Shown: positions 4,627-58,667, counted from the stretch's first letter. The stretch is 64,000 nt of DNA from Candidatus Binatia bacterium (GCA_963666515.2 OY762897.2:3808001-3872000); one strand, 5' to 3'. A program made the numbers and translations. Notes: generated by a model from the sequence alone, not told the origin.

Positions 4627-4752
4627 GCCGTAGTACTTGAAGGACCGGATGATTCGCTCGGGAACAATCAACACATGGTCCACACCGCGCCCTGGGCGAC
4701 CGCCCAAGGCGATCCGTTACACCAGAGTGCTTCAAGCCATGTCGTCACCTCA

Positions 4753-7536: not shown

Positions 7537-7641
7537 GCCAGTCGGGACGCTCCGCGTGGAGCGCTTGTGCCCGCCAAATGTGCTATATTGCATCCGATTC
7601 GGCGTCACAGGTGCCGGATGATGCGAAAGGGAGTGGCGTAC

Positions 7642-10505: not shown

Positions 10506-10506
10506 A

Positions 10507-11505
10507 ATGGCCAGACGCATTGCCGCGGTTCTCCTGCTGGCGCTGGTGGTGGTGGTCGCCGCCACTTCCTTCGTGGTGGTGGACGAGAGGAGCCACGCGG
10601 TCATCACCCAGTTCGGCAGGCCGGTCTCGGTGCTGAGCGACGCCGGCTTCTATCTCAAGCTGCCGGTGCCCTTCCAGCGCGCGCGTCTCCTCGACAAGCG
10701 CATCCTCATCACCAACACGCAGGAGACCGAGCTGCTGACCGCGGACAAGAAGAACGTGCTGGTCTCCACCTACATCTCCTGGAAGATCGCCGACCCGTTG
10801 CGGTACCTGGCGGCGCTGCGCACCCGGGAGTTCGCGGAGAACCGTCTGGCCGCGCTGGTGCAGTCGGAGTTGGGCAGCGCCCTGGGGGACCGGCCCTTCG
10901 GCACGATCCTCGGCGCCGGCGGCAACGGCGCCAGCCTGGCCGAGCTGGAAGGATCGGTGGCGGACGCCGTGGCCAAGGTGGCGCAGGAGGACCTGGGGAT
11001 CGAGGTGGTGAGCCTGGGCGTGACCCGCCTCATCTTCCCGCAGCAGAACCTCGACAGCGTGTTCGCGCGCATGCGGGCCGAGCGTGCGCGCATCGCCCGC
11101 GGCCATCGCTCGGAGGGACGCGCCGAGGCCCAGAAGATCGCCGCCCGGGCGGAGCGGGAAAGGGCGCGGATCATCGCCGACGCCGAGGCCGAGGCTGCCA
11201 AGCTGCGGGGCAGGGGCGAGGCGGAGGCGGCGCGCATCTACGCGGGGGCCTACGAGGGACACGGCGAGTTCTATCGCTTCCTGCGCACGCTGGAGGCCTA
11301 CAAGAAGGTCCTGAACGAGAAGACCACGCTGGTGCTGCCGGCGGACTCGCCGTTCCTGGATCTCTTGACGTCGCGGATTCCGAGCGCCGGAGCGGGACCG
11401 CGGCGGGACGGCCAGGCGCCGGAGCGGAAGGGGGAAGCGCCGGCTCGGGCCGGCGCCTCCCACGATGCCAAGCCGGGCGAGAGCGGGCGCGACACGGGCT
11501 CATGA
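10507..11505 (+). CDS. hflC: HflC-like SPFH protein
   Basis: ITQFGRP, LLTADKKN, VFARMRAER and FYRFLRTLEAY motifs; starts 1 nt after the previous stop. Confidence 0.85.
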   Translation: MARRIAAVLLLALVVVVAATSFVVVDERSHAVITQFGRPVSVLSDAGFYLKLPVPFQRARLLDKRILITNTQETELLTADKKNVLVSTYISWKIADPLRYLAALRTREFAENRLAALVQSELGSALGDRPFGTILGAGGNGASLAELEGSVADAVAKVAQEDLGIEVVSLGVTRLIFPQQNLDSVFARMRAERARIARGHRSEGRAEAQKIAARAERERARIIADAEAEAAKLRGRGEAEAARIYAGAYEGHGEFYRFLRTLEAYKKVLNEKTTLVLPADSPFLDLLTSRIPSAGAGPRRDGQAPERKGEAPARAGASHDAKPGESGRDTGS

Positions 11506-12398
11506 GCGGACGGCGGCGATACTGGACGCTGCTCTCGGGCGCGGTCCTTTTGGCGGGCTACCTGGGGCTCGGGGTCTACAACGTCGAATCCGACGAGAGC
11601 GCGGTGGCCTACGTGCTCGGCCGGGCGGTGGGCCGCGACGTGCTTCCGGGAATACACTGGAACCCGCCGTGGCCGTGGGGTCGGGTGGCGGTCGCCCGGA
11701 CCGCGACCAACTTCATCATGCCGGTGGAGCACTCCGATCCCGGAGGAACCGAGGAGTCCCTCTGGCTGCTGGGCGACACCAACGTCATCGTCGGCAGGCT
11801 GGGCATCCAGTACAGCATCCGCAGCCTGACCCGGTTCGAGGTCTCTCACGAAGACCCGCGCGAGCTGCTGCGCCGGGCCGGCCGCCGGATCGTGACGCGG
11901 TTCCTGGCCGGCGAGAACGTGGACGCCGCGCTCACCACCCGCAGGAGCGACCTGCTGACCGCGGTGCAGCGGCAGGTCCAGTCGATACTCGACGGCCACG
12001 GCACAGGCATCGAGATCCAGTCGGTGAACATCCAGGCGCTGGCGCCGCCCGAGCAGGGCGGCGTGCGCCAAGCCTTTCAGGAGGTCCAGAGCGCCCTGGC
12101 GGACCGGGAGCGGGTGGTGGAGGAGGCCCGCGCCGACCGCGCCCAGATCCTCGCGGAGGCGGAGGGGGAAGCGGAGCACCGCGTGAACCAGGCCGAGGCG
12201 GCGCGCCACCGGCGCGTGGAGATCGCCAAGGGCGAAGGCGAGCGCTTCCGCGGTCTGGCGCTGGAGCACCGCAGGACCCCCAAGCTCACCGAAGAACGGC
12301 TCTACCTCGAAGCCATCGAAGAGATCCTGCCGCGCATGGAAACTTACGTCGTCCAGTCGGGACCGGACGGCAAGGTCAACCTGCGCGTGGTCCGGTGA
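11502..12398 (+). CDS. hflK: HflK-like SPFH protein
   Basis: PGIHWNPPWP, LLGDTNVI, AFQEVQSA and TEERLYLEAIEEIL motifs; ATGA overlap with hflC. Confidence 0.8.
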   Translation: MSGRRRYWTLLSGAVLLAGYLGLGVYNVESDESAVAYVLGRAVGRDVLPGIHWNPPWPWGRVAVARTATNFIMPVEHSDPGGTEESLWLLGDTNVIVGRLGIQYSIRSLTRFEVSHEDPRELLRRAGRRIVTRFLAGENVDAALTTRRSDLLTAVQRQVQSILDGHGTGIEIQSVNIQALAPPEQGGVRQAFQEVQSALADRERVVEEARADRAQILAEAEGEAEHRVNQAEAARHRRVEIAKGEGERFRGLALEHRRTPKLTEERLYLEAIEEILPRMETYVVQSGPDGKVNLRVVR

Positions 12399-42827: not shown

Positions 42828-44507
42828 ATGAGCCTGGACCCCATCACCAGCGAAGTCGTGCTGAGCCGGTTGCGGGAGATCACCGCGTCCATGGCCCACG
42901 CGCTGTTCCACAGCGGCTACTCGCCGATCCTGCGCGAGTCCCAGGACGGCACCGCCGGGCTGACCGACGGCACGGGCCGCGTGATCATGGTGGGCGGCGG
43001 CCTGCAATACCATTCCCTGCTGTATTCGCAGTCGGTGGCCGGCGTCCTGGAACGCTACCCCGCGGAGGAGATGCGCGAGGGCGATTCGTTCGTTTCCAAC
43101 GATCCCTACAAGGCGGGAAACAGCCACGTCCCCGACATGGTGGTGGCGACGCCGGCGTTCCACGACGGCAAGGTGGTGGCTTTCGGCGTCAGCGTGGCCC
43201 ACAAGGCGGACGTTGGCGGCCTGGTGCCGGGCTCCAGCGGCGCGGCCTCGCGCGAGATTTTCCACGACGGCATCCTGCTGCCGCCGGTGCGCTTCACCAC
43301 CGCCGAGGGAGTTCTGCCCGAGGTGGAGGCGATCCTGCGCAACAACAGCCGCATCCCGGACGTGGTGCTGGGCGACCTGCGCGGACAGGTGGGCGCGACG
43401 AAGCTCGGCGCGCTCCGGTTCCAGGAGCTGCTGCAGGAGTACGGCGCGGACACCCTGCTGGGCACCATCGACGAGTTGATGACGCGCACTACGGCCCGCG
43501 TGAGGGCCGAGATCGCCTCGTGGCCGGACGGGGAGCACGAGGCGGAAGGGTTCCTCGACCACGACGGCGTGGACCGCTCCAAGCCGGTGCGCATCCACGT
43601 CCGGGCCGTCAAGGCCGGGGACCGGCTGACGCTCGACTTCTCCGGCAGCGACCCCCAGACCCCCGGACCGGTGAACACCACGCGGGTCACGGCCCGCGCG
43701 GTTTCGACCCAGGCGGTGCTGGCGGCCTCGGATCCGAGCATCCCGATGAACGCGGGCGCGTTCGAGGCCATCGAGTTCAACTTGCCGCCGGGGCTGGTGA
43801 TGAGCCCGCAGTTCCCGGCGACCGTCAACCACTACTTCCCGACCTCCCACCTGGTCTACAACTGCGTGCTCGCCGCGGTCGGAAAGTTCAACCCGAACCG
43901 GGCGGTGGCCCCGTCCGGCCTCGGCACCGGCGCCATCGCCGTGGGCTACAAGCAAAGCCGCTCCGCCGGCCGTCCCACCGTCCAGTACGAGATCATGATC
44001 ACGTCGCTGGGCGGCACCAGCGACCACGACGGCGCCGCCATCGTCATGCCGGTCAACCACTTCGCCCCCGGCACGCCCGTGGAGATCCTCGAGACCGAGT
44101 ACCCCGTTGGCGTCCGCCGCTACGACATCTGGCGGGACTCGGCCGGCGCCGGGCGCTGGCGCGGCGGCACGGGCTTCATCCGCGAGTACGAGTTCCTCAC
44201 CGACTGCACCCTCACGGTCCGCTCGGCCAACCATCAACAAGCCTCATGGGGCCTCAACGGCGGCGGCAGCCCGCCCAACTCCAGGACCACCATCCAGAAC
44301 CCCGGCGAGGACCCGGCCGAAGTCGACATGCTGGAAACCCGGCCCCTCAAGTCCGGCGCCCGGCTCGCCATCTACCGCAGCGGAGGCGGCGGCTACGGCG
44401 ACCCCAGGGAGCGCCCCGCCGAGTTGGTGCGGCAGGACGTCGAGGACGGCTACGTGTCGCGGGAAAAGGCCCGGGAAGCGTACGGGTTGGCGGATGAGCA
44501 AGGCTGA
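42828..44507 (+). CDS. Hydantoinase B/oxoprolinase subunit
   Basis: NDPY..SHVPD, HKADVGG, PVEILETEYP, SAGAGRWRGG and GGGGYGDP motifs; RBS GGAGG. Confidence 0.92.
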   Translation: MSLDPITSEVVLSRLREITASMAHALFHSGYSPILRESQDGTAGLTDGTGRVIMVGGGLQYHSLLYSQSVAGVLERYPAEEMREGDSFVSNDPYKAGNSHVPDMVVATPAFHDGKVVAFGVSVAHKADVGGLVPGSSGAASREIFHDGILLPPVRFTTAEGVLPEVEAILRNNSRIPDVVLGDLRGQVGATKLGALRFQELLQEYGADTLLGTIDELMTRTTARVRAEIASWPDGEHEAEGFLDHDGVDRSKPVRIHVRAVKAGDRLTLDFSGSDPQTPGPVNTTRVTARAVSTQAVLAASDPSIPMNAGAFEAIEFNLPPGLVMSPQFPATVNHYFPTSHLVYNCVLAAVGKFNPNRAVAPSGLGTGAIAVGYKQSRSAGRPTVQYEIMITSLGGTSDHDGAAIVMPVNHFAPGTPVEILETEYPVGVRRYDIWRDSAGAGRWRGGTGFIREYEFLTDCTLTVRSANHQQASWGLNGGGSPPNSRTTIQNPGEDPAEVDMLETRPLKSGARLAIYRSGGGGYGDPRERPAELVRQDVEDGYVSREKAREAYGLADEQG

Positions 44508-44588
44508 CGGCCGGTGAAGGGGCCGCACCGGACGTCTGCGCCGCGGAAACCGCGCCTGGGTCGTTTCTGACGGAGATTCATCGTACGC

Positions 44589-47384
44589 ATGGCATCCGGC
44601 AAACAACGTCGCAAGAAACAGAAGCGGAAACCTTCGGGCCACGTGCCGTTGGGCGATCTGCGGGAGCAGGTTCTGCAACTCCTGGCCCGGGGAGATGGTC
44701 GCGGCGCGCTTGATCGGCTGAAGCAGGCAAAATCCGAAAACGGTCAGCCGCCGGACGAACTGCCGGTTCTTCGGTTCTGCGCCTGCGTCGGGCGCGCTCG
44801 ACAGTTGGCGCGGAGCGGTCTGGACAAGGAGGCCGCGGCCATGCGCGCGCAGGCGGCGCAACACCGGGCGTCCATCCCGGCTGCGGCGCTGGCGGAAACG
44901 GACTTGGCGCTTTACCTCCGTTACCTCGACGGCGGCGACGCTCTGGCAGTTTACGGGGATTATCTCAAGGTCCAGCCGCCCGCCCGGGCGGTCGAACGGG
45001 CATTGGCGGATCAGCTCGTGGTCCGCAGGTGCTGGAAGGGCGTCGACGGTCTTGCGCCGGACCATCCGTTGCGCCGGGACGCCGGGCCGGTCCGGGAAAG
45101 CCTCGACGCCATGGACGCCGGTGACTGGACGCGGGCCGCCGAACGCTTGCAGGGCGTGTCGCGGCGTTCGCCGTTCGCGCCTTGGCGCGTGTTCTGCAAG
45201 GCCATGAAGTGCTTCGGAGACCGCGACGACGCGGGTCTTGCGCAGAATCTCGATCTCTTGCCGGCGGATTTCGTCCTTGCCGGGACGGTTGCCGAGTGGC
45301 GCCGCGCATGCGGCCGGGACAGCGCAGGCGGACCGGTTCCGGTGCGGCGGGTTCTGGGCACGGAGGAAACCGCGGTCGAGACTCTGGCGGGAGAACTGTC
45401 CAAGGCGTTGCGTACCAACGGCCACGCGCGCGCCGTCGAGCGGTTGGTGGTCGAGTTGGCCGATGCCCTGTACCCGGATGAACCGCTTCTGGCTCGCATG
45501 GATCTGCTGCTGATCGCCGGCTTGGCCGTGCCTGACGGCGGGTTCTCCAGGGAGAGCCTGATCGGGATGGTGCGGCGGCTCGTTCCCGAGAACCGCTGGG
45601 TCGGGTTGGGAGCCCGGATCGAGCTGCTGCTTGAGCAGGTTTCGCCCGATTCCTGGGACCCGAGCGTGACGGCCGCCTTGCTGAAGCGTCTGGAGACGGA
45701 GTTCCCCCGTCCTGCGGACCGCCCGCTGGCGCGCGCCCGCATGCTCGAAGCGCTCGCTCGAAACGGCCATCGGGCCGTTCGCCCCGAACGGCTCGCGCCG
45801 CAGACCTTGCAGGCGCTGTTGGAACTGCTGAACGGCCGCTTCGACCCGTCGGAGAATGTGTTCGCCGAGTTGATGGCGGCGAGCCTCGAAGCCGATCCGT
45901 ACAACCGTGAGGGCTATCGTTTCCTGATCGAGTTGGTGCAGGGGCGTGCTGGCGCCAAGCCGCGCATACGCCGCACGTTGGAGGCCATGGCGGCGCACTT
46001 CCCGGAGGATCCGGAGCCGTGGCTGGAAATGGCGGGGCTGGACTACTCCATGAATGCGTACCGGCGCGCCGAAACGACTCTGGCCGAGGCGCAACGGCGC
46101 GCGCCCCATGACGAGCGCACCCTGGACCTGCTGGCCGTGGGTTTCCTCAAGTCCGCGGATCAGAGCCGCAAGAGCGGCCGGTTCGAGCTTGCCGCCAAAG
46201 ACCTGCGGCGCGCCGAAGAGATGCGCCGGCCGGGGCTGGAGAGCATTGTCGAAGTGAAGCGCATCCTCCTGAAGGTGGTGTCCGCGGATGCGCTGTCCCA
46301 CGGCGGAGTATCCGAGGCGGAGACCGCCATGATCGTGGAGCCCCACTTGGCGGGCCTTTCGCCGGCCGGACAGATGAGGACCCTCGCCGTCCTGCTGCAC
46401 GACCTGGAAGAGAATCGCAGCGTCAAGAACGTGCACACCGGGATGCTGGGCAGCGTGAGGGCTCTCGTGGCCGCAAGGATGGCGGATATCGACGGACTCA
46501 CCCAGGATGAGAGGATCGATCTGCTCGTTCCGTTGCCGGCCGATCTTCAGGTGCTCTACGAACGCCGGCACGTCGCTCCGGTCCTGACGGATTGGTGGCC
46601 CGACATCCTGGAGCGGCAGGAAGGCGACGGGCTCCTCGCGGTTCTCGATCTTCTGATGGAGTGCGGCGGAAGCGCCGCGGTCCGCGTGGAGATCGGGCGC
46701 CGCCTGCGCGGGGCGAAGGCGCGCGACCGCGATCCCGTGCTGCTCCTGTACCTCGCGGTGATCCGCTACCGGGCCGGCGATGACTATGATTCCCGACGAT
46801 TTACGGAAGCCCTGGAAGCGGCCGGCGCCGCCGGTCGGAAAAAGCTTCGAACGGTGTCGGCCGGGCTCGCGCGGTTCACCGAGGGCCGCCTTTGCGAAGC
46901 GCTTCACAAGTTCGACTTCTCGTTGCTCGACGCGCCGCCCTGGCTCGACGAAGGTCCCTCGATGGCGGAGATGCTGGACGCGATTTTCGGTCTCGAGGAC
47001 GGGTTCGACGAGCCGCCGCCGGCGCTGAGCAGGGAGTTCGACACCGAGGAGGAGGACGGGCCGCCCCTCGACGAACTCATGGACGCCCTGAAAAACGGTC
47101 TGCGGAACGCTGCTTCCGTCGCCGCGGGCCAGATGTCGTTGTTCGGGGACGCGGCCGAGGCGACTCTGCTTACGCTGGAAACCATCCTCGACCGGTACGG
47201 TCTGCGCGGCCATCCCGCGGATATGCTCCGGCGCGTCGCCAGCATCGTGAGGACGGACGCCGCCATCCGGCGCAATCTGGACGCGCTGGCGCAGCAGTGC
47301 GGGGGGGCGGACCTGGGCGATCGGATCACGCCGGAGGCGCGGGTTTTCCTGTTCCCGCATCGGCGCAAGCGGCGCGGCCGCTGA
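44589..47384 (+). CDS. Large alpha-helical (TPR-like) hypothetical protein, 931 aa
   Basis: Long helical ORF with TPR-like segments (HFPEDPEPWLEMA, AEAQRRAPHD); basic N- and C-termini; acidic patch; first gene of the chaperone operon. Confidence 0.75.
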   Translation: MASGKQRRKKQKRKPSGHVPLGDLREQVLQLLARGDGRGALDRLKQAKSENGQPPDELPVLRFCACVGRARQLARSGLDKEAAAMRAQAAQHRASIPAAALAETDLALYLRYLDGGDALAVYGDYLKVQPPARAVERALADQLVVRRCWKGVDGLAPDHPLRRDAGPVRESLDAMDAGDWTRAAERLQGVSRRSPFAPWRVFCKAMKCFGDRDDAGLAQNLDLLPADFVLAGTVAEWRRACGRDSAGGPVPVRRVLGTEETAVETLAGELSKALRTNGHARAVERLVVELADALYPDEPLLARMDLLLIAGLAVPDGGFSRESLIGMVRRLVPENRWVGLGARIELLLEQVSPDSWDPSVTAALLKRLETEFPRPADRPLARARMLEALARNGHRAVRPERLAPQTLQALLELLNGRFDPSENVFAELMAASLEADPYNREGYRFLIELVQGRAGAKPRIRRTLEAMAAHFPEDPEPWLEMAGLDYSMNAYRRAETTLAEAQRRAPHDERTLDLLAVGFLKSADQSRKSGRFELAAKDLRRAEEMRRPGLESIVEVKRILLKVVSADALSHGGVSEAETAMIVEPHLAGLSPAGQMRTLAVLLHDLEENRSVKNVHTGMLGSVRALVAARMADIDGLTQDERIDLLVPLPADLQVLYERRHVAPVLTDWWPDILERQEGDGLLAVLDLLMECGGSAAVRVEIGRRLRGAKARDRDPVLLLYLAVIRYRAGDDYDSRRFTEALEAAGAAGRKKLRTVSAGLARFTEGRLCEALHKFDFSLLDAPPWLDEGPSMAEMLDAIFGLEDGFDEPPPALSREFDTEEEDGPPLDELMDALKNGLRNAASVAAGQMSLFGDAAEATLLTLETILDRYGLRGHPADMLRRVASIVRTDAAIRRNLDALAQQCGGADLGDRITPEARVFLFPHRRKRRGR

Positions 47385-47395
47385 GGAACGGAGCC

Positions 47396-47701
47396 ATGCT
47401 GAGCCACTACCTGACCCTCGGACTGCCGCCGTCGGCTTCCAGCCAGGAGATTCGACGGCGCTACCTCGAACTCGTCCGCGCCCATCCGCCCAGCCGGGAG
47501 CCCGAGTACGGCGAGCGGATCATCGCCGCCTACGAGGCGTTGAAGGACGATCGGCGGCGAGTGGACACCGACTTGTTCGGGATGGCCCGCTGCGGCGGTT
47601 TCGAGCTGGCCCTGGACGCGCTGGTGCGGGCGCGCCCATCGGGACGCGCGACCCCCGGCCTCAAGACGCTTCTCGCCGCGGAAGGCATCGGTGATGACTG
47701 A
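47396..47701 (+). CDS. Small J-domain (DnaJ-like) protein with non-canonical HPP motif
   Basis: HYLTLGL...EIRRRYLELVRAHPPSR...IIAAYEAL; RBS GGAG. Confidence 0.8.
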   Translation: MLSHYLTLGLPPSASSQEIRRRYLELVRAHPPSREPEYGERIIAAYEALKDDRRRVDTDLFGMARCGGFELALDALVRARPSGRATPGLKTLLAAEGIGDD

Positions 47702-48380
47702 GCAGGACCGCGGCTGGAAGGAACGCGCGCTGGCGGACTTCCGGGAGTGGCTCGATGAGATGGACGGTGGCGCGGCGCCGGCGGATGCGGACCCGGAAAG
47801 CGTAACGCCGGAGCCCCCCCAGCCCGACCTGCGGTCGCTCTTCGCCGAGTTCGCGGCGCTCCGGCAGGAGGTCCGGCTTCAGAACCGGGAGCAATCCAGG
47901 GCGGTGCGGGAACTCGTCAAGGCGGCGGACGGTTACGAGGACGCGACGCGTCTGGTTCAACGCCGGGAAGACGATCTCGCGGCGTTCGAGAACCGGATCG
48001 CCCGGGAGGCCGAGAATCGCTGCCTGCGCTCCGTTCTGGAGGTGCGCGACGCGCTGGTGCGGGGCCGGGACGCGGCGGTCGCGCTGAGCCAAGGGCGGGG
48101 ACTGTTCCGGCGTCCGTCGCGCGGCGTCGCCGGCGTGGCCGAAGGGTACGAGATCGCGCTTCGGCGCTTCGACCGGATGTTGTCCGGGTTCGGCGTGGCG
48201 CCGGTGAAGACCACCGGGCATCCCTTCGATTCCCGGACCATGCACGCGATGGAAATTCGCCGGGCCGGGGAGAGCGGGAGCGGCGTGGTCGCGGAAGAAT
48301 TGCGTAGCGGCTTCACGCGCGACGGCGAGGTGCTGCGCGTCGCCGACGTGGCCGTGAACCGTTTCGACACAGGAGAGTGA
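47691..48380 (+). CDS. grpE: GrpE-family nucleotide exchange factor
   Basis: Coiled coil followed by GHPFDSRTMHAM and GFTRDGEVLRVADVAV; overlaps the J gene. Confidence 0.8.
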   Translation: MMTEQDRGWKERALADFREWLDEMDGGAAPADADPESVTPEPPQPDLRSLFAEFAALRQEVRLQNREQSRAVRELVKAADGYEDATRLVQRREDDLAAFENRIAREAENRCLRSVLEVRDALVRGRDAAVALSQGRGLFRRPSRGVAGVAEGYEIALRRFDRMLSGFGVAPVKTTGHPFDSRTMHAMEIRRAGESGSGVVAEELRSGFTRDGEVLRVADVAVNRFDTGE

Positions 48381-48383
48381 AAC

Positions 48384-50171
48384 ATGGATTCCGAACCCAT
48401 CGTCGGCATCGACCTCGGCACGACCAACTCCGAGGTGGTGGTCCTTTCCGGCGGGAAGCCGGAGGTCGTGCGCGAGGATGACGATGCCATCGTGCCCTCG
48501 TGCGTCGGGCTGGACGAGGCGGGCAACGTCATCGTCGGGCGCCAAGCGCGGAACCAGGCCGCGGTCGCCCCCGAGCGGACGGTGCTTTCCATCAAGCGGC
48601 TGATGGGTTCCGGCGAGCGGGTGGTGATGGGGTCGGAGACGTACACTCCGCAGGAATTGTCGGCCTTCATTCTCAAGGCGCTCAAGGAACGGGCCGCCCG
48701 CGCGCTGGCCCGGGAGGTGCGCAAGGCGGTGATCACGGTGCCGGCCTACTTCACCGACGCCCAGCGTCAGGCCACCCGGGAAGCCGGCCGCATCGCCGGG
48801 CTGGAGGTGGCGCGGATCATCAATGAGCCGACCGCGGCCGCGCTGAGCTACGAGAGCCGCAGCAGCGGGAGCCGCCGAATCCTCGTCTACGACCTGGGCG
48901 GCGGCACCTTCGACGTCTCGGTGGTGGCCATCGAGGACGGCGTGGTCGAGGTTCTCGCTTCCACCGGAGACAATCACCTCGGCGGCGACGACTTCGACGC
49001 CTTGATCGTGAAGCGTCTCAACACGCACGTCGAGAGCGAGCTCGGCATCGAAGGCGCCGGCGACAACCTCCTCCTGCAAGCGCGGCTCCGGCGGGCGTCG
49101 GAGCAGGCCAAGATCGAGCTTTCGACCCAACCCTTCGTCCGGGTCGAGGAGGATCATATCGCCTCGGTGGACGGCGAGCCCAGGCATCTGTCCTTCGAGG
49201 TGAGCCGCGCGGACTTCGAGCAGGACCTCGAGGAGATGCTGGCCCGCACCATGCAGTCGGTGACGACGGCGCTCAACGACGCCGGCGTGGTGCCGAGCCA
49301 GATCGACCGCGTCCTGCTGGTGGGCGGTTCGACCCGCATTCCCCGCATCGCCCAGCTTCTCGCGGAGCGGTTGGGGCAGGAGCCCCACGGCGAAGTGGAC
49401 CCGGACCTGTGCGTCGCTTTGGGGGCCGGCGTGCAGGCGGGCATCGAGATGGGGCACGACATGCAGTCCGTGCTGGTGGACATCACCCCTTATACCTTCG
49501 GCACCAGCGCCGTCGGCGAGCTCTACGGCCTGCCGTACGCCCATCAGTACTTCCCTCTCATCCGGCGCAACAGCAAGCTTCCCGCCACCCACACCGAGGC
49601 GTTTTCGACCTTGACCGAACACCAGGACACGGTGGAGGTCAAGGTCTACCAGGGGGAAGACCCGGATGCATTGAAGAACGTGGAGATCGGCTCGTTTTCC
49701 ATTACCGGCCTCAACCGGCAGCGCGGGGCATACGAGCAGGGCCTGCTTTTTTCCTTTCACCTGGACCTCGACGGCCTGCTCAAGGTCCACGCGGTGGAGC
49801 GGGCCACCGGCCGGGAAATCCGCGGCGTCGTCGAAAACGCCCTGGAGCGTTCCACCGAGGAAAGCCTCGCCGCCTCGATGCAGCGCATCGAAGCGCTGTG
49901 GGGCGAAGAAGAGATGCCCGCCGGCGGCGCTCGGGAGGAAGCGGCGGGGGCCGCCAGCGCTCCGGATCCCGGCAGCGACTTCCAGGCCGGCGATGAGTTC
50001 CAGGAGACGCTGGATCGCGCCCGGGCCGCGCTCGACACCGCTCCCGCTCCGGACCAGCAGGAGATCATCGACCTGATCGAAGACCTGCGCTACGCGTTAC
50101 GGGAAGGGCGCGCCGAAGACGCCGCGACGGTGAAGCAGGATCTCGACGAGATACTCTTCTATCTGGAGTAG
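48384..50171 (+). CDS. Hsp70-family chaperone (DnaK paralogue)
   Basis: GIDLGTTNS, VITVPAYF, INEPTAAAL, DLGGGTFDVS, GDNHLGGDDFD and LVGGSTRIP motifs; divergent linker VLVDITPYTFG and short lid. Confidence 0.93.
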   Translation: MDSEPIVGIDLGTTNSEVVVLSGGKPEVVREDDDAIVPSCVGLDEAGNVIVGRQARNQAAVAPERTVLSIKRLMGSGERVVMGSETYTPQELSAFILKALKERAARALAREVRKAVITVPAYFTDAQRQATREAGRIAGLEVARIINEPTAAALSYESRSSGSRRILVYDLGGGTFDVSVVAIEDGVVEVLASTGDNHLGGDDFDALIVKRLNTHVESELGIEGAGDNLLLQARLRRASEQAKIELSTQPFVRVEEDHIASVDGEPRHLSFEVSRADFEQDLEEMLARTMQSVTTALNDAGVVPSQIDRVLLVGGSTRIPRIAQLLAERLGQEPHGEVDPDLCVALGAGVQAGIEMGHDMQSVLVDITPYTFGTSAVGELYGLPYAHQYFPLIRRNSKLPATHTEAFSTLTEHQDTVEVKVYQGEDPDALKNVEIGSFSITGLNRQRGAYEQGLLFSFHLDLDGLLKVHAVERATGREIRGVVENALERSTEESLAASMQRIEALWGEEEMPAGGAREEAAGAASAPDPGSDFQAGDEFQETLDRARAALDTAPAPDQQEIIDLIEDLRYALREGRAEDAATVKQDLDEILFYLE

Positions 50172-50179
50172 TCCACGTC

Positions 50180-50473
50180 ATGCGCTGCCCGACCTGCGGA
50201 GCCAGACAGGTGGAAGGCCCCTGCTGCCACCGTTGCGAAACCGACCTGCGCCAAGTGTTCGCCATCGAACGAGCCGCGGCCAACGAGAGGCAGCGCGCGC
50301 TCACCGCCCTCGCCCACGGCCGCCGATCGGAAGCCCGCGCCCTCGCCAACCGCGCCTGCACCCTGCACCGGTCCCGTGACGCCGTCGCCGCCCGCGCCGC
50401 GGTTGCCCTGGCAGACCGCGACTTCCCCTTGGCGTTGCGGCTGTGGCGGGAAACGCGCCGCGCACCAGATTGA
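50180..50473 (+). CDS. Zinc-ribbon + TPR-like small protein
   Basis: CPTC...CHRC followed by Ala-rich helices; 8 nt after the Hsp70 stop. Confidence 0.65.
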   Translation: MRCPTCGARQVEGPCCHRCETDLRQVFAIERAAANERQRALTALAHGRRSEARALANRACTLHRSRDAVAARAAVALADRDFPLALRLWRETRRAPD

Positions 50474-50544
50474 GACGCAAGAGTTACGGAGGATGGGAAA
50501 GCGCCGGACTGCTGCGAGTCGCCCTGGGTGACTTCGCCGGCTGG

Positions 50545-51525
50545 CTACGTGTCCCGCACGCTCGGGTGAAAGAGTTCCTCCACCGGGTACGGCGAGTCGA
50601 TCAGCGTCTGGTCGGTCAGGTATTTCATGAAGCGTTCGAGGCAGGCGCGGTTGGCCGCGAGGCCCGAAGGCCAGATGTCGGCGCCGAACAGGGTCCGTTC
50701 CTCCTCGAAGTCATTGCGCGCGAAGGCCAGTTCGGCATAGCCCGGGTCGTCATAGAATTCCGCCGCCTGGGCCTTGGAATCCTCCCACATGTCCATCAGC
50801 GCGCGCGGCAGGCCGGGGTGACGGTCGGCGATTTCCTGCTTGTAGACCAGCACGTGCATGATCGGATAGTCGCCGTTCTTCCTGAAATAGCGCGCGCATT
50901 CCTCCTTGGTGTCGGGGAACAGCCGGTGGAGCGATCCCTCGCGCAAGCCCTCCAGCAGCTTGGGCGGCGGATGCGGGTGGATCATCATGGCAAGGTCGCC
51001 CTCGATCAGCGCGTCCGGGGCGCTGGGCTCGTCGATCAGAGTCAGATTGGCGGCCTCGCGGCCCGGCCAGTCGATGAGTTCCGAGCTCATGGTCTGCCAG
51101 TCCAGCTCCTGCCAGGGCACGCCGTACTCGAACGCGAGGTCGCCTTTGGCCAGCACCGACATGGTGGTCTGGAAACTGCGGCAGCAGACCTTCCGGCCGA
51201 TCAGGTCCGCCGGCTTTTCGATGCCGGCCGCGGTGCTGACGAACATGTGGTTCTGGCTGAACAGGCGGCGCGGGAACACCGGCGTCGCCGTGTAGTCAAG
51301 CCCGCGGCTCTTGGCCGTGAGGTAGGACGACAGCGACATCTCGCAAATGTCGAACTCGCCGCCGCGCATGAAGCGCCTGTGGCGGTCGATGCCGTCGCGC
51401 CTCGGCGGCGCCATGCCGACCTCGAGCACTTTCAGGTCGATGCCTTCCGGGGGCGAGACCATTCCCATGAAGAACGGCACGTGCCGGTCATACCGCTCCA
51501 GCGCGATGGTCAATTCCGTCGCCAT
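50545..51525 (-). CDS. 4,5-dihydroxyphthalate decarboxylase-like / periplasmic-binding-fold protein
   Basis: YDRH, FDICEMSLSSY, PVFPRRLF, YPIMH and WPSGLAANR motifs. Confidence 0.75.
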   Translation of the reverse strand: MATELTIALERYDRHVPFFMGMVSPPEGIDLKVLEVGMAPPRRDGIDRHRRFMRGGEFDICEMSLSSYLTAKSRGLDYTATPVFPRRLFSQNHMFVSTAAGIEKPADLIGRKVCCRSFQTTMSVLAKGDLAFEYGVPWQELDWQTMSSELIDWPGREAANLTLIDEPSAPDALIEGDLAMMIHPHPPPKLLEGLREGSLHRLFPDTKEECARYFRKNGDYPIMHVLVYKQEIADRHPGLPRALMDMWEDSKAQAAEFYDDPGYAELAFARNDFEEERTLFGADIWPSGLAANRACLERFMKYLTDQTLIDSPYPVEELFHPSVRDT

Positions 51526-52871: not shown

Positions 52872-53141
52872 ATGCCAATGCCACGTCACAATATGCATGT
52901 TCCTCTTCCGACGGACACCCATGCGCGACTCAAAGCGGAGTCCAAGCGCTCTGGGCGGCCCACGACGGCGCTGGCCCGCGAAGCTATCGAGACATGGCTG
53001 GCCGAGCGGGAAAAAGAGTCCCTGCACGATGCAATCGCCGAGTATGCGCGGGTGGCTGCCGGGACACCGGCTGATCTGGATCCGGAGTTGGAAAGCGCCG
53101 CGGTGGATCATCTGCTGGATACCGAGCGGGGCGACGCGTGA
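52872..53141 (+). CDS. Ribbon-helix-helix antitoxin
   Basis: HVPLP...RLKAES.RSGRPTTALAREAI motif; GTGA overlap with the toxin. Confidence 0.75.
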   Translation: MPMPRHNMHVPLPTDTHARLKAESKRSGRPTTALAREAIETWLAEREKESLHDAIAEYARVAAGTPADLDPELESAAVDHLLDTERGDA

Positions 53142-53485
53142 AACGCGGGGATGTTTACTGGGCAACCCTGACGCCTCGGTCGGGCTCGGAACAGAAGGGT
53201 CGGCGCCCCGTCATCGTCGTTTCCCATGACGGTTTCAATCAGACATCCGCATGGCGTTCCATCATCGTCGTCCCGCTGTCAACGTCTATCCCCCAACGGC
53301 AACGTGGACCGACGTCCGTTGCCTTGCCTGAAGGCGTCGCAGGCCTGAACCGGGACGGCGTTGCGCTATGCCACCAAGTCACCACGCTCGATCGGGCCAA
53401 GCTGTCGCGCCATATCGGCACCCTGCCTACGGTGGCCATGAGCGCGGTGGATGCCGGCCTCAAGGCCGCGCTCGCGTTGTGGTAA
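53138..53485 (+). CDS. PemK/MazF-family endoribonuclease toxin
   Basis: MKRGDVYW, GSEQKGRRPVIVVS, VVPLST and CHQVTTLDR motifs. Confidence 0.9.
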   Translation: MKRGDVYWATLTPRSGSEQKGRRPVIVVSHDGFNQTSAWRSIIVVPLSTSIPQRQRGPTSVALPEGVAGLNRDGVALCHQVTTLDRAKLSRHIGTLPTVAMSAVDAGLKAALALW

Positions 53486-53541: not shown

Positions 53542-53563
53542 CGGGCTTGAAACCTGCCCCTGC
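53542..53563 (-). repeat. GTAG-type REP variant
   Basis: Reverse strand GCAGGGGCAGGTTTCAAGCCC resembles the copy at 34077. Confidence 0.45.
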
Positions 53564-53642
53564 ACCCGGACCGTCCTGCGGCGCAGGCTCCCAAGGACGG
53601 CGGGACTTCACGGACCACGGGCGAATCGGTAAGAAGAGCGTC

Positions 53643-56405
53643 ATGGAACGGTCACTGAAGAAGGCAGGACGCAGTCGCCCGCGGTTGGTGAACGAGCGGC
53701 CGCCGACGTTTCGCGGCTGGCTCTCCACCGATGAAGACGAGGTCCGGCGGAGGGAGTGGCGCGGGCGGACCGAGATCGACGAGATACGTGCGCTCGACCC
53801 GAAGCACCGCCCGTTCGGCGACTACCGTGTCGCTTCGTCGAGCGGCGGCCGCTACGTGGTCGAGATACGCTCGCTCCGCCAACGCATCAATTCCTGCGAG
53901 TGTCACGACTACCGCACCAACCGTCTGGGGACCTGCAAGCACATCGAAGGGGTGCTGCGCCGTGCGGACGGCGTCCGCGCCGGAGGCGCGGCGAGTGGAA
54001 GATCGAACGGCCGTATCGAGATATTCGTCGACGAGGCCAACGGGCGGGCGCTACGACGGACCGTTCCGACGGCGAACGGGCGCGGCGCGCCGGAAGTCGT
54101 CGCGGAAACGGAGCGGCTCTTCCGCAGCCTGCGCCGCGGCTCCCCGAAGGCGCTCGCCGGGCTTCGCCGGATGGCGTCGGACCACCCTGGCGCGTTGCGG
54201 GTCTCACGCCTGCTGGAGGGTTGGGTCGAGGCCAGGCAGGCGTCGGAGCGCAAACGCCGCGAACGGGCGCGTTTCGCCGCGGACCTCAGCGAAAGGCGCC
54301 GCTCCCTCGATTTTCTCAAACGTCCGCTGCTGCCGTACCAGGTGGAGGGCGTCCTCCATCTTGCGTTCGGGGAGCGCTCGTTGCTTGCGGACGACATGGG
54401 CCTCGGCAAGACGGTGCAGGCCATCGCGGCCTGCGCGCTCCTGCGCGAACTCCGCGGCGTCGAGCGGGTGCTGGTGGTGTCGCCGGCCTCCCTCAAGGCC
54501 GAATGGGAGGAACAGATCGCGACCTTCTCCGACCTTCCCGCCACGGTCGTGTTCGGGGGACCCGCGGCCCGCCGCGCGGCCTACGAGCGGGGCGCCTTCT
54601 TCACGCTCTGCAACTATGAGCAGGTGGTGGTGGACCGGAGGGAACTCATCGAGACGCTCCGGCCCGATGTCGTGATTCTGGACGAAGCCCAACGCATCAA
54701 GAACTGGCAGACCAAGACCGCCAACGAGGTCAAGAAGCTCGACAGCCGCTACGCCTTCGTCCTCACCGGCACCCCCCTCGAGAACCGCATCGACGAAGTC
54801 TACTCGATCGTCCAGTTTCTCAATCCCGATCTCCTCGGCCCGCTGTTCCGCTTCAACCGGGAGTTCTATGAGTTGGACGAAAAGGGCCGCCCCGTGGGCT
54901 ACCGCAACCTGGAGGCGCTGGCGGAGCGGGTGTCGTCGGTGATGCTCCGCCGGCGGAAGGAGGACGTCGAGAGCCAGCTTCCGGGGCGGACGACGAAGAC
55001 GTTCTTCGTTCCCATGACCGAGACCCAGCTCGACGTCTACGACGGTTACGAGCGCCTTGCGCAACGGCTCGCCGCCATCGCCGCGAAACGGCCGCTTACG
55101 CCCGAGGAGTTCAAGTCGCTCCAGGGGAATCTCGCCTGCATGCGCATGGCCTGCGACACCCCTTACATCCTCGACGGCAGGACGCGCGAGTGTCCCAAGA
55201 TGGAGGAGATCGAAGGGCTCTTGCCGGACCTCTTGGAAGACCCCGCGCGCAAGATCATCATCTTCTCCGAATGGGTGCGGATGCTGGAGCTGGTCCGCGA
55301 CTACGCGGTGGAGGCCGGCATCGAGTTCGCGTGGCACACGGGAAGCGTCCCCCAGCTTCGGCGCCGCGCCGAGATCCAACGGTTCCGCAAGGACCCCGAA
55401 TGCCGGCTGTTCCTCTCTTCCGAGTCCGGCGGGGTGGGACTGAACCTCCAGGTGGCCGACACGGTCATCAACATGGACCAGCCGTGGAACCCCGCACGGC
55501 TGGAGCAGCGCATCGCCCGCGCCTGGCGCAAGCACCAGACCCGCGCCGTCCACGTCATCCACCTGGTGAGCGAGCACACCATCGAACACCGCATGCTCGG
55601 GCTGCTGGACGCCAAGCGAGCGCTGGCCGAAGGCGTGCTCGACCGCAAGGGCGATCTCGCCGGCATCCGTATGCCCAACAGCCGGGCCGCGTTCATGGAG
55701 CGGCTGCAGGCCGTGCTCGACACCCGGCCGAAAGAGGAGGAGGCCGCGGCCGGGGCGCAACCTCCGGTCACCACCCTCGACCGCCTGCGCGATGAGCTGG
55801 TCGCCGGTCACGGTGCGGCGTTGCAGCGGATCCTTGCGCGCGAAGGCGCCGGCGCCGCGCTGGTCGTGCTCAACCTCCCAGCCCCTCGTCTGGCGGAGGA
55901 AGAACGCCGCCTCAGCGAATCCACGGGACTGAGCGTCAAGGTCATCGCCCCTGACGCCTACGAGTCGATGCGGCGTCTGGCGGAAGCCGGGTTGATCTCG
56001 ATGCCGGCGGAGGACCTCCGCGAGGTGTATCCTGCCGCCGGCGCGGAGGACGACGGGAGCGCCGGCCGCCTGCTTCGCGCCAAGGCGCTGGCCGAACGCG
56101 CGGAGCACAAGCTCAAGGCCTCGGCGTTGCTCGAAGGCGGCGGCTTCCCGGAGGAAGCGCGCGCCCCCGCGGTGGAGGCGGCCCGGCTCGCCGCCGGATG
56201 CCTGGCCGTGGCGGAGGGTGCGCCGGAGCCCGAGGACGCCGAAGCCGCGGCGGCGTTTCTGCTTGAGCACGAGGTGGCGGCCGGCGGTCTCCCGCTCGAC
56301 GCGGTAGGCATACTTTCCGGCGAGGCGCCCGAGGCGGAAGTGGCGGCCCCTGTGCGCAGCCTGCTGGACGCGGTGGCTGCGCGCCTCGATCCCGCCGCGG
56401 GCTGA
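53643..56405 (+). CDS. SWIM zinc finger SNF2-family helicase
   Basis: CECHDY...CKH (SWIM); LADDMGLGKT, DEAQ, LTGTP, GGVGLNLQ and WNPARLEQR motifs. Confidence 0.92.
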   Translation: MERSLKKAGRSRPRLVNERPPTFRGWLSTDEDEVRRREWRGRTEIDEIRALDPKHRPFGDYRVASSSGGRYVVEIRSLRQRINSCECHDYRTNRLGTCKHIEGVLRRADGVRAGGAASGRSNGRIEIFVDEANGRALRRTVPTANGRGAPEVVAETERLFRSLRRGSPKALAGLRRMASDHPGALRVSRLLEGWVEARQASERKRRERARFAADLSERRRSLDFLKRPLLPYQVEGVLHLAFGERSLLADDMGLGKTVQAIAACALLRELRGVERVLVVSPASLKAEWEEQIATFSDLPATVVFGGPAARRAAYERGAFFTLCNYEQVVVDRRELIETLRPDVVILDEAQRIKNWQTKTANEVKKLDSRYAFVLTGTPLENRIDEVYSIVQFLNPDLLGPLFRFNREFYELDEKGRPVGYRNLEALAERVSSVMLRRRKEDVESQLPGRTTKTFFVPMTETQLDVYDGYERLAQRLAAIAAKRPLTPEEFKSLQGNLACMRMACDTPYILDGRTRECPKMEEIEGLLPDLLEDPARKIIIFSEWVRMLELVRDYAVEAGIEFAWHTGSVPQLRRRAEIQRFRKDPECRLFLSSESGGVGLNLQVADTVINMDQPWNPARLEQRIARAWRKHQTRAVHVIHLVSEHTIEHRMLGLLDAKRALAEGVLDRKGDLAGIRMPNSRAAFMERLQAVLDTRPKEEEAAAGAQPPVTTLDRLRDELVAGHGAALQRILAREGAGAALVVLNLPAPRLAEEERRLSESTGLSVKVIAPDAYESMRRLAEAGLISMPAEDLREVYPAAGAEDDGSAGRLLRAKALAERAEHKLKASALLEGGGFPEEARAPAVEAARLAAGCLAVAEGAPEPEDAEAAAAFLLEHEVAAGGLPLDAVGILSGEAPEAEVAAPVRSLLDAVAARLDPAAG

Positions 56406-56409
56406 AGCC

Positions 56410-57099
56410 ATGTGCGGCCGGTACACGCAGACGGCGAAGCTCGACGAGCTTGTCAATAGATTCGGCATCGACGAGCCGGATTTCGACCTGACGCCCCGGT
56501 ACAACCTGGCGCCCAGCCAGGATGCGCCGGTGGTGGGCGTCAACCCCAATACGCCGGGGACCCGCACCCTGCGGCTGATGCGCTGGGGCCTCGTGCCCTG
56601 GCACGCCAGGGACGCCTCCAAGCCCATCATCAACGCCCGCGCCGAGACCCTCGCCCAGCGGCCCGCCTTCCGGGACTTGGTGCCGAGGCGGCGCTGCCTG
56701 GTTCTGGCCGACGGCTTCTACGAGTGGCGCCGGGACGGCCGCTTCCGGACCCCCATGCGCTTCACCCTCCGAAGCGGCGAACCCTTCGCCTTCGCCGGCC
56801 TCTGGGACCGCTGGCGCCGGCCCGACGGCGCCTCGTTCTATTCGTTCACCATCGTCACCACGAGTCCCAACAACCTCCTCGAGCCGATCCACAACCGGAT
56901 GCCCGCCATCCTGCTTCCGGACGAAGAAGCCAAGTGGCTCGATCCCGCTAACACGGACCCCACGGCCCTGTCGGCGTTGCTGAAATCCTATCCCGCCGAG
57001 TTGATGGATGGGTACTGCGTCTCACGAGCCGTCAACTCGCCCGTTAACGACTCCGCGGAGTGCATCGCGCGAGACGAACCGCCGGTAACTTGGTTGTGA
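56410..57099 (+). CDS. SOS response-associated peptidase (SRAP, YedK/HMCES family)
   Basis: MCGRY N-terminus; RYNLAPSQ, INARAET, GFYEW and IHNRMPAIL motifs. Confidence 0.93.
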   Translation: MCGRYTQTAKLDELVNRFGIDEPDFDLTPRYNLAPSQDAPVVGVNPNTPGTRTLRLMRWGLVPWHARDASKPIINARAETLAQRPAFRDLVPRRRCLVLADGFYEWRRDGRFRTPMRFTLRSGEPFAFAGLWDRWRRPDGASFYSFTIVTTSPNNLLEPIHNRMPAILLPDEEAKWLDPANTDPTALSALLKSYPAELMDGYCVSRAVNSPVNDSAECIARDEPPVTWL

Positions 57100-57316
57100 C
57101 GTAGATGACGGTCGTCCCGAGCAAGGTGGGGCTTGCGGATCGGCCGATAGCGGGATAATTCTTGTACGGTGTAGGGAGGTTGACGCGGATTCGTAAGGAT
57201 CGTGCTCGGTCGAAAGAGCACAAAGGTGGTGATTGGATGAGGCTGAAGCAGTATCGTGCACTTGTCGGCTGGGCCATTCTGGAATGGTATGAGGGAGACG
57301 ATCAATAGGTGGCGCT

Positions 57317-58667
57317 ATGGGCGCGATTAGGCGGTTTTTTGTTCGCGATGTACGCTGTTTCGAGGGTGACCACACGCTCGAGATACGTCCATTGACATTC
57401 CTCGTGGGCGAGAATAGCACAGGCAAGTCAACCGTTTTGGGTTGCCTCCATGCACTAGGGAGCTTTCTCGAATACCGTCATACGAATATCGATTTCAATT
57501 CGGAACCCTACCAGATGGGCGCTTTCGCCGACATCGTGAGGAGGTCGCGGCCCAGAAAACAAGACTTCCAATTGGGTATCGAACTCTCGACAGACGGCGG
57601 CAGCAATCTTCGATTTTTTGTTGTCCTGACGGAGGAGGAGAGGGGGTCCGAGCCCTTCTTTCGAAGTGCAAGATGGGTGTTCGAAGACGGCGAGATCGCG
57701 TTGTCAACCCCGGACGACGGAGAGGAGCAGACTGAGCGTGGTTTTCACGTGACTCAGTCCTCCGCAAACCGTTTTCATATCCAGTTGAGCAACGCCAGGC
57801 TTTGGCAGTTCGTCTTCTTCGAACTGCCGTATATGGGGGATTATCTGGAGAGCGCGAAGTCATCGAGCGGCACCCAAGCGGACTTGGGGACTGCAGCGAA
57901 GAATCTGAAAGACTTCATCAATCGGCAATTCTCCAAGGATGCCGGCGTCCCTGGAACATATCGATACGGCCCCTTGTTTGGTTTGCACTCGTACTCCATC
58001 CACAGCATTGCACCAGTGCGTTCCAAACCCAAGCGGACATACGACCCTTTGAAGGAGACAGAAACACCAGACGGCAGCGAGATTCCGGTGGCGCTGATGA
58101 ATCTTAGCGTTTCAAGAAGGGGGGAATGGACGGAGTTACGCGAAGGCCTCTTGGCGTTTGGCCGGGAGTCTGGCCTGTTCTCGGACATCGCTCTTCGTAG
58201 ATTGGGCGGGTCTCGAGGGGGACCCGTTTCAGTTGCAGATCAAGGTCAGTGGCCCGAGGGCCAATTTGATGGATGTGGGGTACGGCGTCAGCCAAGTTCT
58301 ACCTATCCTCGTACGGATTCTGACGGGGCGGCATGCTACCTTTTTGTTGCAGCAGCCGGAAGTCCACTTACACCCGAAAGGGCAGGCCGAATTGGCGTCT
58401 CTGTTGGTAGATGTTCACCACAGCCATGACAACGCTTTCGTTATTGAAACGCACAGCGATCACATGATTGATCGTGTTCGTATCGAGATCAGACGCGGTA
58501 GGATCAAGCCAGAGGACGTTTCGCTAATCTATCTCGAACCTATTGGCAATCACGTGAGGACCCACAACATCGGCTTCGACGCGCGCGCCAATATGGTTGG
58601 CGTTCCCCAACACTACCGTGATTTCTTCCTGAACGAGGCGGATCGCTTGCTGGGATTGGCGGATTGA
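57317..58667 (+). pseudogene. ABC-type ATPase (AAA_21/DUF3696-like), frameshifted
   Basis: Walker A GENSTGKS in the first ORF; DVGYGVSQVLP, LLQQPEVHLHP and IETHSDH in the +1 frame; one extra G in the G5 run at 58217-58221. Confidence 0.8.

Follow-up and report, generated by a model that had tools for sequence, protein, structure and literature searches.

Positions 44589 to 50473 of a 64,000-nucleotide stretch of the genome of a Candidatus Binatia bacterium (GCA_963666515.2, OY762897.2:3808001-3872000; hereafter, the window) hold a same-strand (+) operon of five genes that is a second, non-housekeeping Hsp70 chaperone set with its own helpers. In order, the genes encode a tetratricopeptide repeat (TPR)-like solenoid, a small J-like protein, a GrpE-like nucleotide exchange factor, an accessory Hsp70 and a zinc-ribbon/TPR protein. 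This composition and gene order are conserved in distant hosts, the genes are under purifying selection, and the unit is accessory and transferred. We think it probable that the operon, here called the cassette, is a self-contained, horizontally spread, accessory HscC-like Hsp70 machine that stands apart from the housekeeping DnaK system.

The TPR-like protein (44589-47384, +; 931 amino acids [aa]) has K/R-rich N and C ends and an acidic disordered loop at residues ~784 to 825, as judged from its translation, a TPR_19 match and an AlphaFold2 (AF2) model. Eleven nucleotides (nt) downstream begins the J-like gene (47396-47701, +; 101 aa), whose product joins a J fold, with HPP in place of the His-Pro-Asp (HPD) triplet, to a conserved C-terminal extension (~52-99; Pfam DnaJ and alignment). 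The GrpE-like gene (47691-48380, +; 229 aa; Pfam GrpE), the second in the genome, starts within the end of the J-like gene with an 11-nt overlap; its start is GTG, with an ATG one codon downstream. After gaps of 3 nt and 8 nt follow the Hsp70 gene (48384-50171, +; 595 aa; Pfam HSP70 and alignment with Escherichia coli DnaK and HscC) and the gene for the zinc-ribbon/TPR protein (50180-50473, +; 97 aa), in which an N-terminal CPxC...CxRC motif precedes four helices forming two TPR-like motifs (AF2 and alignment). The list of open reading frames (ORFs) and their translations thus bear out the five same-strand genes and the spacings given in an earlier reading of the window made from its sequence (hereafter, the original prediction).

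Some 300 kb from the cassette, the same genome carries a canonical dnaK (923.6 bits against PF00012), which a canonical grpE (166 bits) immediately precedes (C1:3550095-3552485), so the cassette Hsp70 is not the only DnaK of its genome. A single canonical DnaK (882 to 932 bits), accompanied by at least one cassette-type Hsp70, is also present in each of five other host genomes. The window protein is a genuine Hsp70, matching PF00012 over residues 6 to 500 with 458.4 bits (cut-off, 20.6), and falls under the DnaK equivalog cut-offs of NCBIfam, with 491.2 bits versus 648 for NF001413 and 481.6 versus 822.55 for TIGR02350. Its GrpE-like partner scores 64.3 bits against PF01025 (cut-off, 25.8) and below all NCBIfam GrpE equivalog cut-offs. 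The dedicated, non-housekeeping Hsp70 set foreseen in the original prediction is upheld by this second Hsp70 and second GrpE, by the gene order that is kept and by purifying selection.

Among 67 loci with a relative of the TPR protein in a collection of species-representative genomes, 57 have all five genes in the same order; seven are ended by a contig edge, and three are truncated or disrupted (L020, L064 and L070). The gene-neighborhood comparison proposed earlier therefore finds an order that is conserved well beyond the window's genome. According to their record titles, the loci belong to Binatia, Gamma- and Alphaproteobacteria, Latescibacterota, Vicinamibacterales/Acidobacteriota, Spirochaetia and Dehalococcoidia, and they cover at least seven phylum-level groups. 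Identity to the window proteins across related loci is 66 to 87% for Hsp70, 58 to 88% for the J-like protein, 45 to 81% for GrpE, 46 to 85% for the zinc-ribbon protein and 39 to 76% for the TPR protein. Two labels look wrong: L066, labeled Syntrophomonadaceae, has a cassette Hsp70 near-identical to that of the Dehalococcoidia record L058, and L040, labeled Syntrophobacterales, is syntenic with the window's Binatia genus, with flanks 89 to 92% identical to it.

The distribution of the cassette is patchy. A query with the TPR protein found matches in 2 of 301 genomes sampled across the phylum and in 3 of 201 genomes of the class, all three from the window's genus (3 of its 12 species); nine same-genus genomes, 93 to 99% complete, gave no match to this query. 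In the order of a Vicinamibacterales host (G492), 4 of 201 genomes matched. All four copies in the window's genus (window, L027, L004 and L040) sit between hydantoinase B and an amidohydrolase, and the empty site measures ~105 bp in G428 and ~290 bp in G472, both of the same genus, compared to ~6.0 kb in the window. Genome alignments place the left junction, to which no strand is assigned, in the intergenic region after hydantoinase B (44495-44588), where likeness to cassette-free same-genus genomes stops: the left-side alignments end at window positions 44494 (L083) and 44509 (L082). The right junction, likewise unstranded, spans 50474 to 50544, and likeness to the cassette-free G428 picks up again at 50545. 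The cassette is an accessory unit. Two small repeats were seen at this site. In L027, a short element resembling a miniature inverted-repeat transposable element, with near-perfect inverted arms of ~35 bases, lies between hydantoinase B and the cassette (~7790-7950) and is absent from the window; a GC-rich palindromic repeat of CCCGCTTTCGCGGGAATGACG-type units fills the intergenic cassette site in L082 (2200-2480) and L027 (13900-13950).

Comparison with the housekeeping protein points to horizontal transfer of the cassette, as a unit, between distant phyla. In two same-genus genomes, DnaK is 93 to 94% identical to that of the window and the cassette Hsp70 81 to 87%; in five other phylum-level groups the order is reversed, with 64 to 69% for DnaK and 66 to 76% for the cassette Hsp70. 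The cassette Hsp70 evolves faster yet is closer across phyla than DnaK, and its common ancestor must therefore be much younger than the phyla. A quick tree gathers the cassette Hsp70s into a single clade (98% support in the Shimodaira-Hasegawa-like approximate likelihood ratio test) on a long stem of 1.62; within it, copies mostly cluster by host taxon, which suggests that transfers between phyla were few and were followed by spread within lineages. Between same-genus genomes, flanks are 88 to 92% identical at the DNA level and cassettes 84%, 81% and 73 to 79%. Synonymous divergence of the cassette (0.29 to 1.09) ranges from about that of hydantoinase B (0.27 to 0.43) to roughly double it, while non-synonymous divergence (dN) is three to six times higher (0.07 to 0.27 versus 0.024 to 0.048). 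Only the hydantoinase B rows supply the flank values; those of hydantoinase A and some of the amidohydrolase rows were set aside as artifacts of incorrect frames or partial matches. All five genes are under purifying selection: dN/dS is 0.12 to 0.54 for almost every gene pair compared, pairs of copies from a single genome among them, and reaches 0.78 and 1.17 in two very short comparisons that contain hardly any changes.

Some hosts carry many copies. In the 11.3-Mb genome of G492, the Vicinamibacterales host, nine cassette-type Hsp70 matches accompany a single DnaK, and five full and two disrupted cassettes come from it, several of them on one 8.5-Mb contig. The repeated unit corresponds roughly to the operon alone (6.2 to 6.7 kb) at 94 to 97% identity, with one copy at 84 to 88% and one pair at 99.8%, and dN/dS among the copies is 0.12 to 0.50. 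No terminal repeats or target duplications were seen at the copy ends, which are ragged; no relatives of the TPR protein were found in viral contigs, plasmids or phages, and Pfam revealed no recombinase, transposase or nuclease domain in the cassette. Since it lacks a recombinase, we doubt that the cassette moves by itself. In one G492 copy (L068), the TPR gene is split by a ~1.9-kb insertion at ~9620 to 11555; the inserted sequence also adjoins the truncated copy L064 (98% over 1,483 bases).

When the cassette Hsp70 is aligned with the DnaK and HscC proteins of E. coli, the intact ATPase motifs of the original prediction are confirmed, and R167 is conserved as well. The "divergent linker" described there was a misreading, as VLVDITP aligns with the interdomain linker VLLLDVTP of E. 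coli DnaK. Three indels are shared with E. coli HscC: a deletion in lobe I of the nucleotide-binding domain (DnaK ~75-98); a 4-residue deletion at DnaK ~209 to 212, near D211, whose borders, like those of the first, agree with HscC in the window protein and in five diverse cassette copies; and an insertion in the first β-sandwich loop (L1,2), which in the cassette is 8 residues long and of ELYGLPYA type. The traits ascribed to HscC in PMC8215388 include a lobe-I deletion (DnaK 76-101), a small D211-loop deletion and a 4- to 8-residue L1,2 insertion. The same source describes HscC as lacking the GrpE signature and as thought to run without an exchange factor, HscA and HscC both being GrpE independent. 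The loop at DnaK ~284 to 291 is deleted in HscC and present in all six cassette Hsp70s aligned, which fits their having their own GrpE. In place of lid helices A and B there is a short helix, with a variable linker that is acidic or rich in Pro and Ala. The short tail ending in LDEILFYLE, noted previously, is conserved: of 52 copies aligned, 48 end in DEILFYL[E/D/G] and the remaining four in closely similar sequences.

The J-like protein scores slightly over the Pfam DnaJ cut-off (31.7 versus 27.8 bits), and its profile matches solved J domains at an E value of 1.5e-7, with HPP placed on the HPD of DNAJA1. Its description in the original prediction as a protein of about 100 aa without glycine/phenylalanine-rich (G/F) and zinc domains stands, with the addition that the HPD aspartate is missing too. 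Its last 45 residues equal the J domain itself in conservation.

In the 931-aa protein, Pfam recognizes only TPR_19 (28.4 bits) and no enzyme domain. Its AF2 model is all-helical with a mean predicted local distance difference test score (pLDDT) of 81.6 and low-confidence basic ends. Full-length relatives number in the hundreds at 45 to 95% identity, and a profile of 20 relatives retrieved 210 cluster representatives at an E value of ≤1e-30 among 1.84 billion; a protein atlas gave only clusters named "hypothetical protein / TPR". The most constrained stretches are residues 160 to 240 and 470 to 550 (dN/dS of 0.11 to 0.18 in the latter), and the highest dN/dS of any window, 0.90, falls in the disordered loop, none exceeding 1.

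Complex prediction with TPR residues 30 to 925 and the J-like protein, each with its own alignment, suggests that the C-terminal tail of the J-like protein docks on the TPR platform. Three runs gave interaction prediction scores from aligned errors (ipSAE) of 0.78, 0.77 and 0.78, compared to 0.00 for the best of three controls; the runs share at least 92% of contacts, with a partner pLDDT of at least 83. Of 157 solved complexes, 116 attain the ipSAE mark, as do 2 of 215 mismatched pairs; this calibration is only rough here since custom alignments were used. The predicted contacts join J-like residues 52 to 99, chiefly 82 to 99, to platform residues 144 to 439, including an invariant AMDAGDW stretch. 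The confident contacts of the model leave out the HPP loop and the greater part of helices II and III. Conservation of the platform interface is 0.76 versus 0.70 in its surroundings, a value attained by 322 of 10,000 random sets. The 931-aa protein had been cast as the client or sensor of the machine; a physical tie to the machine is indeed predicted (0.78 versus 0.00), while the model favors the role of platform.

The 97-aa protein has no Pfam match at an E value of ≤0.1 and hence no zf-DNL match, and its zinc-ribbon profile retrieved nothing significant from the PDB sequences. C3, C6, C16 and C19 are invariant across aligned copies, and the AF2 model (pLDDT, 92.3) shows a zinc ribbon followed by four helices. 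Foldseek searches with these helices gave weak TPR matches (best E value, 0.15; template modeling [TM] score of 0.55 to 0.65 and root-mean-square deviation of 1.1 to 1.5 Å over 61 to 68 columns), many of them to co-chaperone TPRs that bind the tails of Hsp70 or Hsp90, none reaching an E value of 0.001. As a lead only, the protein may bind the invariant Hsp70 C terminus.

From these parts we propose a machine in which the 931-aa TPR solenoid would serve as the platform and the J-like protein as its resident adaptor, with the tail (~52-99) lying in the concave N-terminal half of the solenoid. Beyond this platform-adaptor contact we infer the remaining steps, including the client. The outward-facing J-domain helices would recruit the cassette's own Hsp70, which combines a normal ATPase core and linker with an altered substrate-binding domain (the 8-residue insertion) and a shortened lid, and the dedicated GrpE would reset it. 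The zinc-ribbon/two-TPR protein could act as a further cofactor, perhaps by binding the C terminus of the Hsp70. The machine would then remodel a protein on or near the platform, for which the constrained surface at 470 to 550 is a candidate site. Since exactly five genes travel into very different hosts, the target would lie within the cassette (the platform itself), be universal to bacteria, or be foreign.

Several points weigh against this reading. HPD occurs in 0 of 61 aligned J-like rows, the triplet position being HPP, HRP, NPP, YPP or QRP. Without HPD, ATPase stimulation may fail or require a host J protein, and the HPD-less adaptor could be a regulator instead of a recruiter. The platform-adaptor contact is a matter of model confidence and not of measurement. 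Foldseek with the 931-aa model returned as best matches the long TPR scaffolds Ski3, Naa15, TTC7B and Ctr9 at a TM score of ~0.15, and at so low a score the fold likeness of the platform is generic. The quick tree places E. coli HscC outside the cassette clade, at the midpoint root on a branch of 3.7 to 4.0, a placement that carries a long-branch warning; because HscC does not join the clade, its link to the cassette rests on the shared indels. The lobe-I deletion among these is also found in many non-proteobacterial DnaKs (Mayer 2021, PMC8215388). No RNA run holding this stretch was present among the sequencing runs listed. Finally, multiple copies per genome and frequent mobile or defense neighbors fit a role in conflict equally well.

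In such a conflict or anti-phage system, the TPR solenoid would sense an invader protein and the tethered Hsp70 would act as an ATP-driven switch, or unfold or sequester the invader protein, with no classical effector required. We regard this as a serious rival, if a rather unlikely one. It would suit a cassette that is accessory, patchy and transferred between phyla, that occurs in several copies on single contigs (with nine cassette-type Hsp70 matches in G492) and whose non-synonymous change is three to six times that of hydantoinase B. To examine its surroundings, 8-kb flanks of 32 loci from other taxa were surveyed, with ORFs chosen by GC content at third codon positions and scanned with Pfam. 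The flanks differ in all 32, and a transposase, integrase or recombinase is among the four nearest ORFs in 10. PADLOC matches at an E value of ≤1e-15 were obtained for 16 of 115 flanking ORFs. Eight were judged generic (cysteine desulfurase, DeaD helicase, ABC ATPases, sigma-70, ankyrin repeats and methyltransferase) and eight specific, namely Cas1-Cas4 (L018), a PDC-M38A/M38B pair (L069), PDC-M38A (L049), PDC-S33 (L061), AbiLi/AriA-like ATPases (L025 and L047) and a DpdE/ZorD-like SNF2 protein (L060). Some of these loci are orthologous (L049 and L069, and probably L025 and L047), and the counts, taken without a genome-wide background, show residence in the flexible genome and not enrichment. 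Moreover, the PADLOC check suggested by the original prediction brought out no defense family among the five proteins: PADLOC-DB 2.0 gave no real match, only partial ones to PDC-M61B (E value, 1.8e-4) and DruH (2.3e-3), PHROGs returned only generic Hsp70, J and GrpE families, and Pfam, NCBIfam and PHROGs showed no effector domain, whether nuclease, protease, NADase, pore or of another kind. Selection also speaks against a conflict role, as no window of the TPR gene has a dN/dS above 1. The window neighbors, from which the original prediction had drawn a stress or anti-phage role, fail to support one: metabolic genes adjoin the cassette, and the block downstream, with its toxin-antitoxin-like pair and SNF2 gene, is also present in the cassette-free same-genus genome G356 (locus L084), so adjacency carries no weight here.

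A different role, which we hold to be improbable, is that of a host-association factor, in which the eukaryote-like TPR repeat protein acts on an animal host and the private Hsp70 set keeps it soluble or export competent. Nearly all related loci are, by their record titles, metagenome-assembled genomes, from taxa that we take to be typical of marine sponge microbiomes, and one DNA run labeled "sponge metagenome" holds 0.34 of the sampled cassette words; ankyrin and Sel1 repeat genes stand beside some copies (L012, L041 and L043), and the K/R-rich ends of the TPR protein would also suit this role. However, the cassette showed neither a signal peptide nor a membrane segment nor a secretion-system gene, its flanks showed none of these consistently, and the habitat reading draws on names and one run label, with a shared habitat perhaps serving merely as the route of transfer. 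That the five genes are the machinery of a new mobile element is very unlikely. The repeated unit in G492 does approximate the operon alone (6.2 to 6.7 kb, 94 to 97% identity), and presence and absence are clean at one site in the window's genus, but the cassette lacks recombinase, transposase and nuclease domains, its ragged ends have no terminal repeats or target duplications, no relative occurs in viral contigs, plasmids or phages, and four same-genus copies sit at one site with synonymous divergence of the order of the flanks. Just as improbable is a mere copy of the housekeeping DnaK-DnaJ-GrpE stress operon that happens to have an unrelated TPR gene upstream; in our judgment, conservation of the five genes as a unit refutes this reading. 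The family matches of Hsp70 and GrpE are genuine and the ATPase motifs and linker intact, yet the Hsp70 falls under the DnaK cut-offs, forms a separate clade on its long stem (1.62) and has HscC-type indels; its J partner lacks HPD and G/F and zinc-finger domains; and the TPR and zinc-ribbon genes are retained in 57 of 67 loci in a patchy distribution. We speculate further, and with considerable doubt, that the cassette is a chaperone-based conflict or immunity module in which the portable TPR platform catches a protein that is foreign or aberrant and the permanently tethered Hsp70 unfolds or sequesters it, the HPD-less adaptor replacing catalytic J signaling. The cassette would then be a fourth kind of prokaryotic Hsp70 system, next to DnaK, HscA and HscC, that is spreading by gene transfer in animal-associated communities.

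A scan of 43500 to 51500 gave no match to the controlling inverted repeat of chaperone expression (CIRCE), and a simple promoter and terminator scan and Rfam over the same interval had no useful result. HrcA (PF01628) has no match anywhere in the window's genome, which is 98% complete. The original prediction's remark that neither hrcA nor CIRCE is evident is therefore correct, genome-wide for the former and locally for the latter; because no HrcA was found in the genome, the missing CIRCE is uninformative. In the upstream regions of 31 loci, read by eye, there was no motif common across phyla, and a sigma-70-like TTGAAC-N17-TAAGAT sequence was present upstream of Acidobacteriota copies only.

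Upstream of the cassette, the window encodes a molybdenum hydroxylase and hydantoinases A and B. Downstream are an unnamed 326-aa gene and the amidohydrolase, both on the opposite strand, and then a ribbon-helix-helix (RHH)-like/MazF-like pair, SNF2, SRAP and an AAA ATPase. From a reading of the sequence alone, the pair (52872-53485, +) comprises overlapping ORFs for an 89-aa RHH antitoxin-like and a 115-aa MazF/PemK-type toxin-like protein. The region from 53547 to 58429 contains an SNF2-family helicase (952-aa ORF), SRAP (56410-57099) and an AAA_21/AAA_15 ATPase (57317-58429); a Cys/His motif near the N terminus of the SNF2 protein is reminiscent of a SWIM finger. Other copies have neighbors of their own. 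A full-length PDC-M38A ATPase lies directly downstream of Spirochaetia cassettes (L069, 13940-15885; L049, 14027-15184), followed in L069 by PDC-M38B (DUF3226), with which it makes up a candidate defense pair of PADLOC. A Cas4-Cas1 fusion (Cas1g model, 560 bits) is found ~140 bases past a Vicinamibacterales cassette (L018, 13975-16185). Upstream of a Paracoccaceae cassette (L054) are two 534-aa RRXRR + HNH proteins on opposite strands (3470-5071 and 6309-7910), equal in length and with near-identical Pfam scores. An HU/IHF-type gene occurs just downstream of the Vicinamibacterales copies L014 (14067-14441), L019 (14197-14571) and L016 (14468-14890) and is within the extended repeat in two of them.

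The closest described system is HscC-DjlB/DjlC of E. coli (locus ybeQ-ybeR-djlB-ybeT-ybeU-djlC-hscC). Like the cassette Hsp70, HscC is specialized and non-housekeeping, has the three indels and ends at the lid bundle, and its locus also encodes TPR-class repeat proteins, YbeQ and YbeT, which carry a Sel1 repeat annotation. In neither system do the J partners have HPD; DjlB and DjlC carry HPE according to PMC10410713. In contrast to the cassette Hsp70, which retains the loop and has its own GrpE, HscC is without the GrpE signature. DjlB and DjlC are ~480 aa long and membrane tail-anchored, whereas the cassette J-like protein is soluble, 101 aa long and bears HPP or HRP; the HscC system has DUF1266 proteins that are absent from the cassette and lacks a zinc-ribbon protein and a 930-aa solenoid. 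With canonical DnaK-DnaJ-GrpE the cassette shares a co-encoded Hsp70, GrpE-family factor and J-fold partner and conserved ATPase motifs, R167 and linker, but its J protein is devoid of HPD, G/F, zinc-finger and client-binding domains, and its lid is shortened. The canonical system is universal, while the cassette is accessory and transferred, with TPR and zinc-ribbon genes added.

The mitochondrial import motor likewise combines an Hsp70 and a GrpE-type factor with a J-like subunit devoid of HPD, a small cofactor that binds zinc and a tethering platform. Its composition is given as mtHsp70, Mge1, Pam18, the J-like Pam16, Tim44 and the zinc-finger protein Tim15/Zim17 (PMC9695410). The parts list is no more than analogous to that of the cassette, which lacks a genuine HPD-type J protein, a membrane channel and a zf-DNL match and whose platform is a TPR solenoid, not Tim44. 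The helices of the 97-aa protein superpose on eukaryotic TPR co-chaperones (Hop/Sti1, CHIP, Hip, Sgt2 and Sec72), which have three TPR motifs and not two as in the cassette protein; because TPR folds are all similar and no match reached an E value of ≤0.001, this likeness to tail-binding proteins is a lead only. In Myxococcus xanthus, a second Hsp70 is reportedly encoded beside its own GrpE homologue (GrpS-SglK). We know of no TPR, J-like or zinc-ribbon genes in that operon.

We found no description of the cassette in the open full-text literature (subscription papers being outside the scope of the search), and what is added here is the empty-site comparison, the reversal of identities between DnaK and the cassette Hsp70, the selection profile, the shared indels together with the retained loop, and the predicted complex. 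A standard review distinguishes three prokaryotic Hsp70 types, DnaK, HscA and HscC (PMC8215388). The cassette looks like a further self-contained system, an HscC-like motor that keeps its GrpE and has an HPD-less J partner and a predicted platform of 930 residues. HPD-less J partners challenge the rule that HPD is indispensable, and the cassette is an instance of TPR-Hsp70 partnership in bacteria. As it works after transfer across phyla and is only 5.9 kb long, it lends itself, being compact, to expression, reconstitution and structural studies, and the discovery of its client could reveal a new proteostasis task or a new kind of defense.

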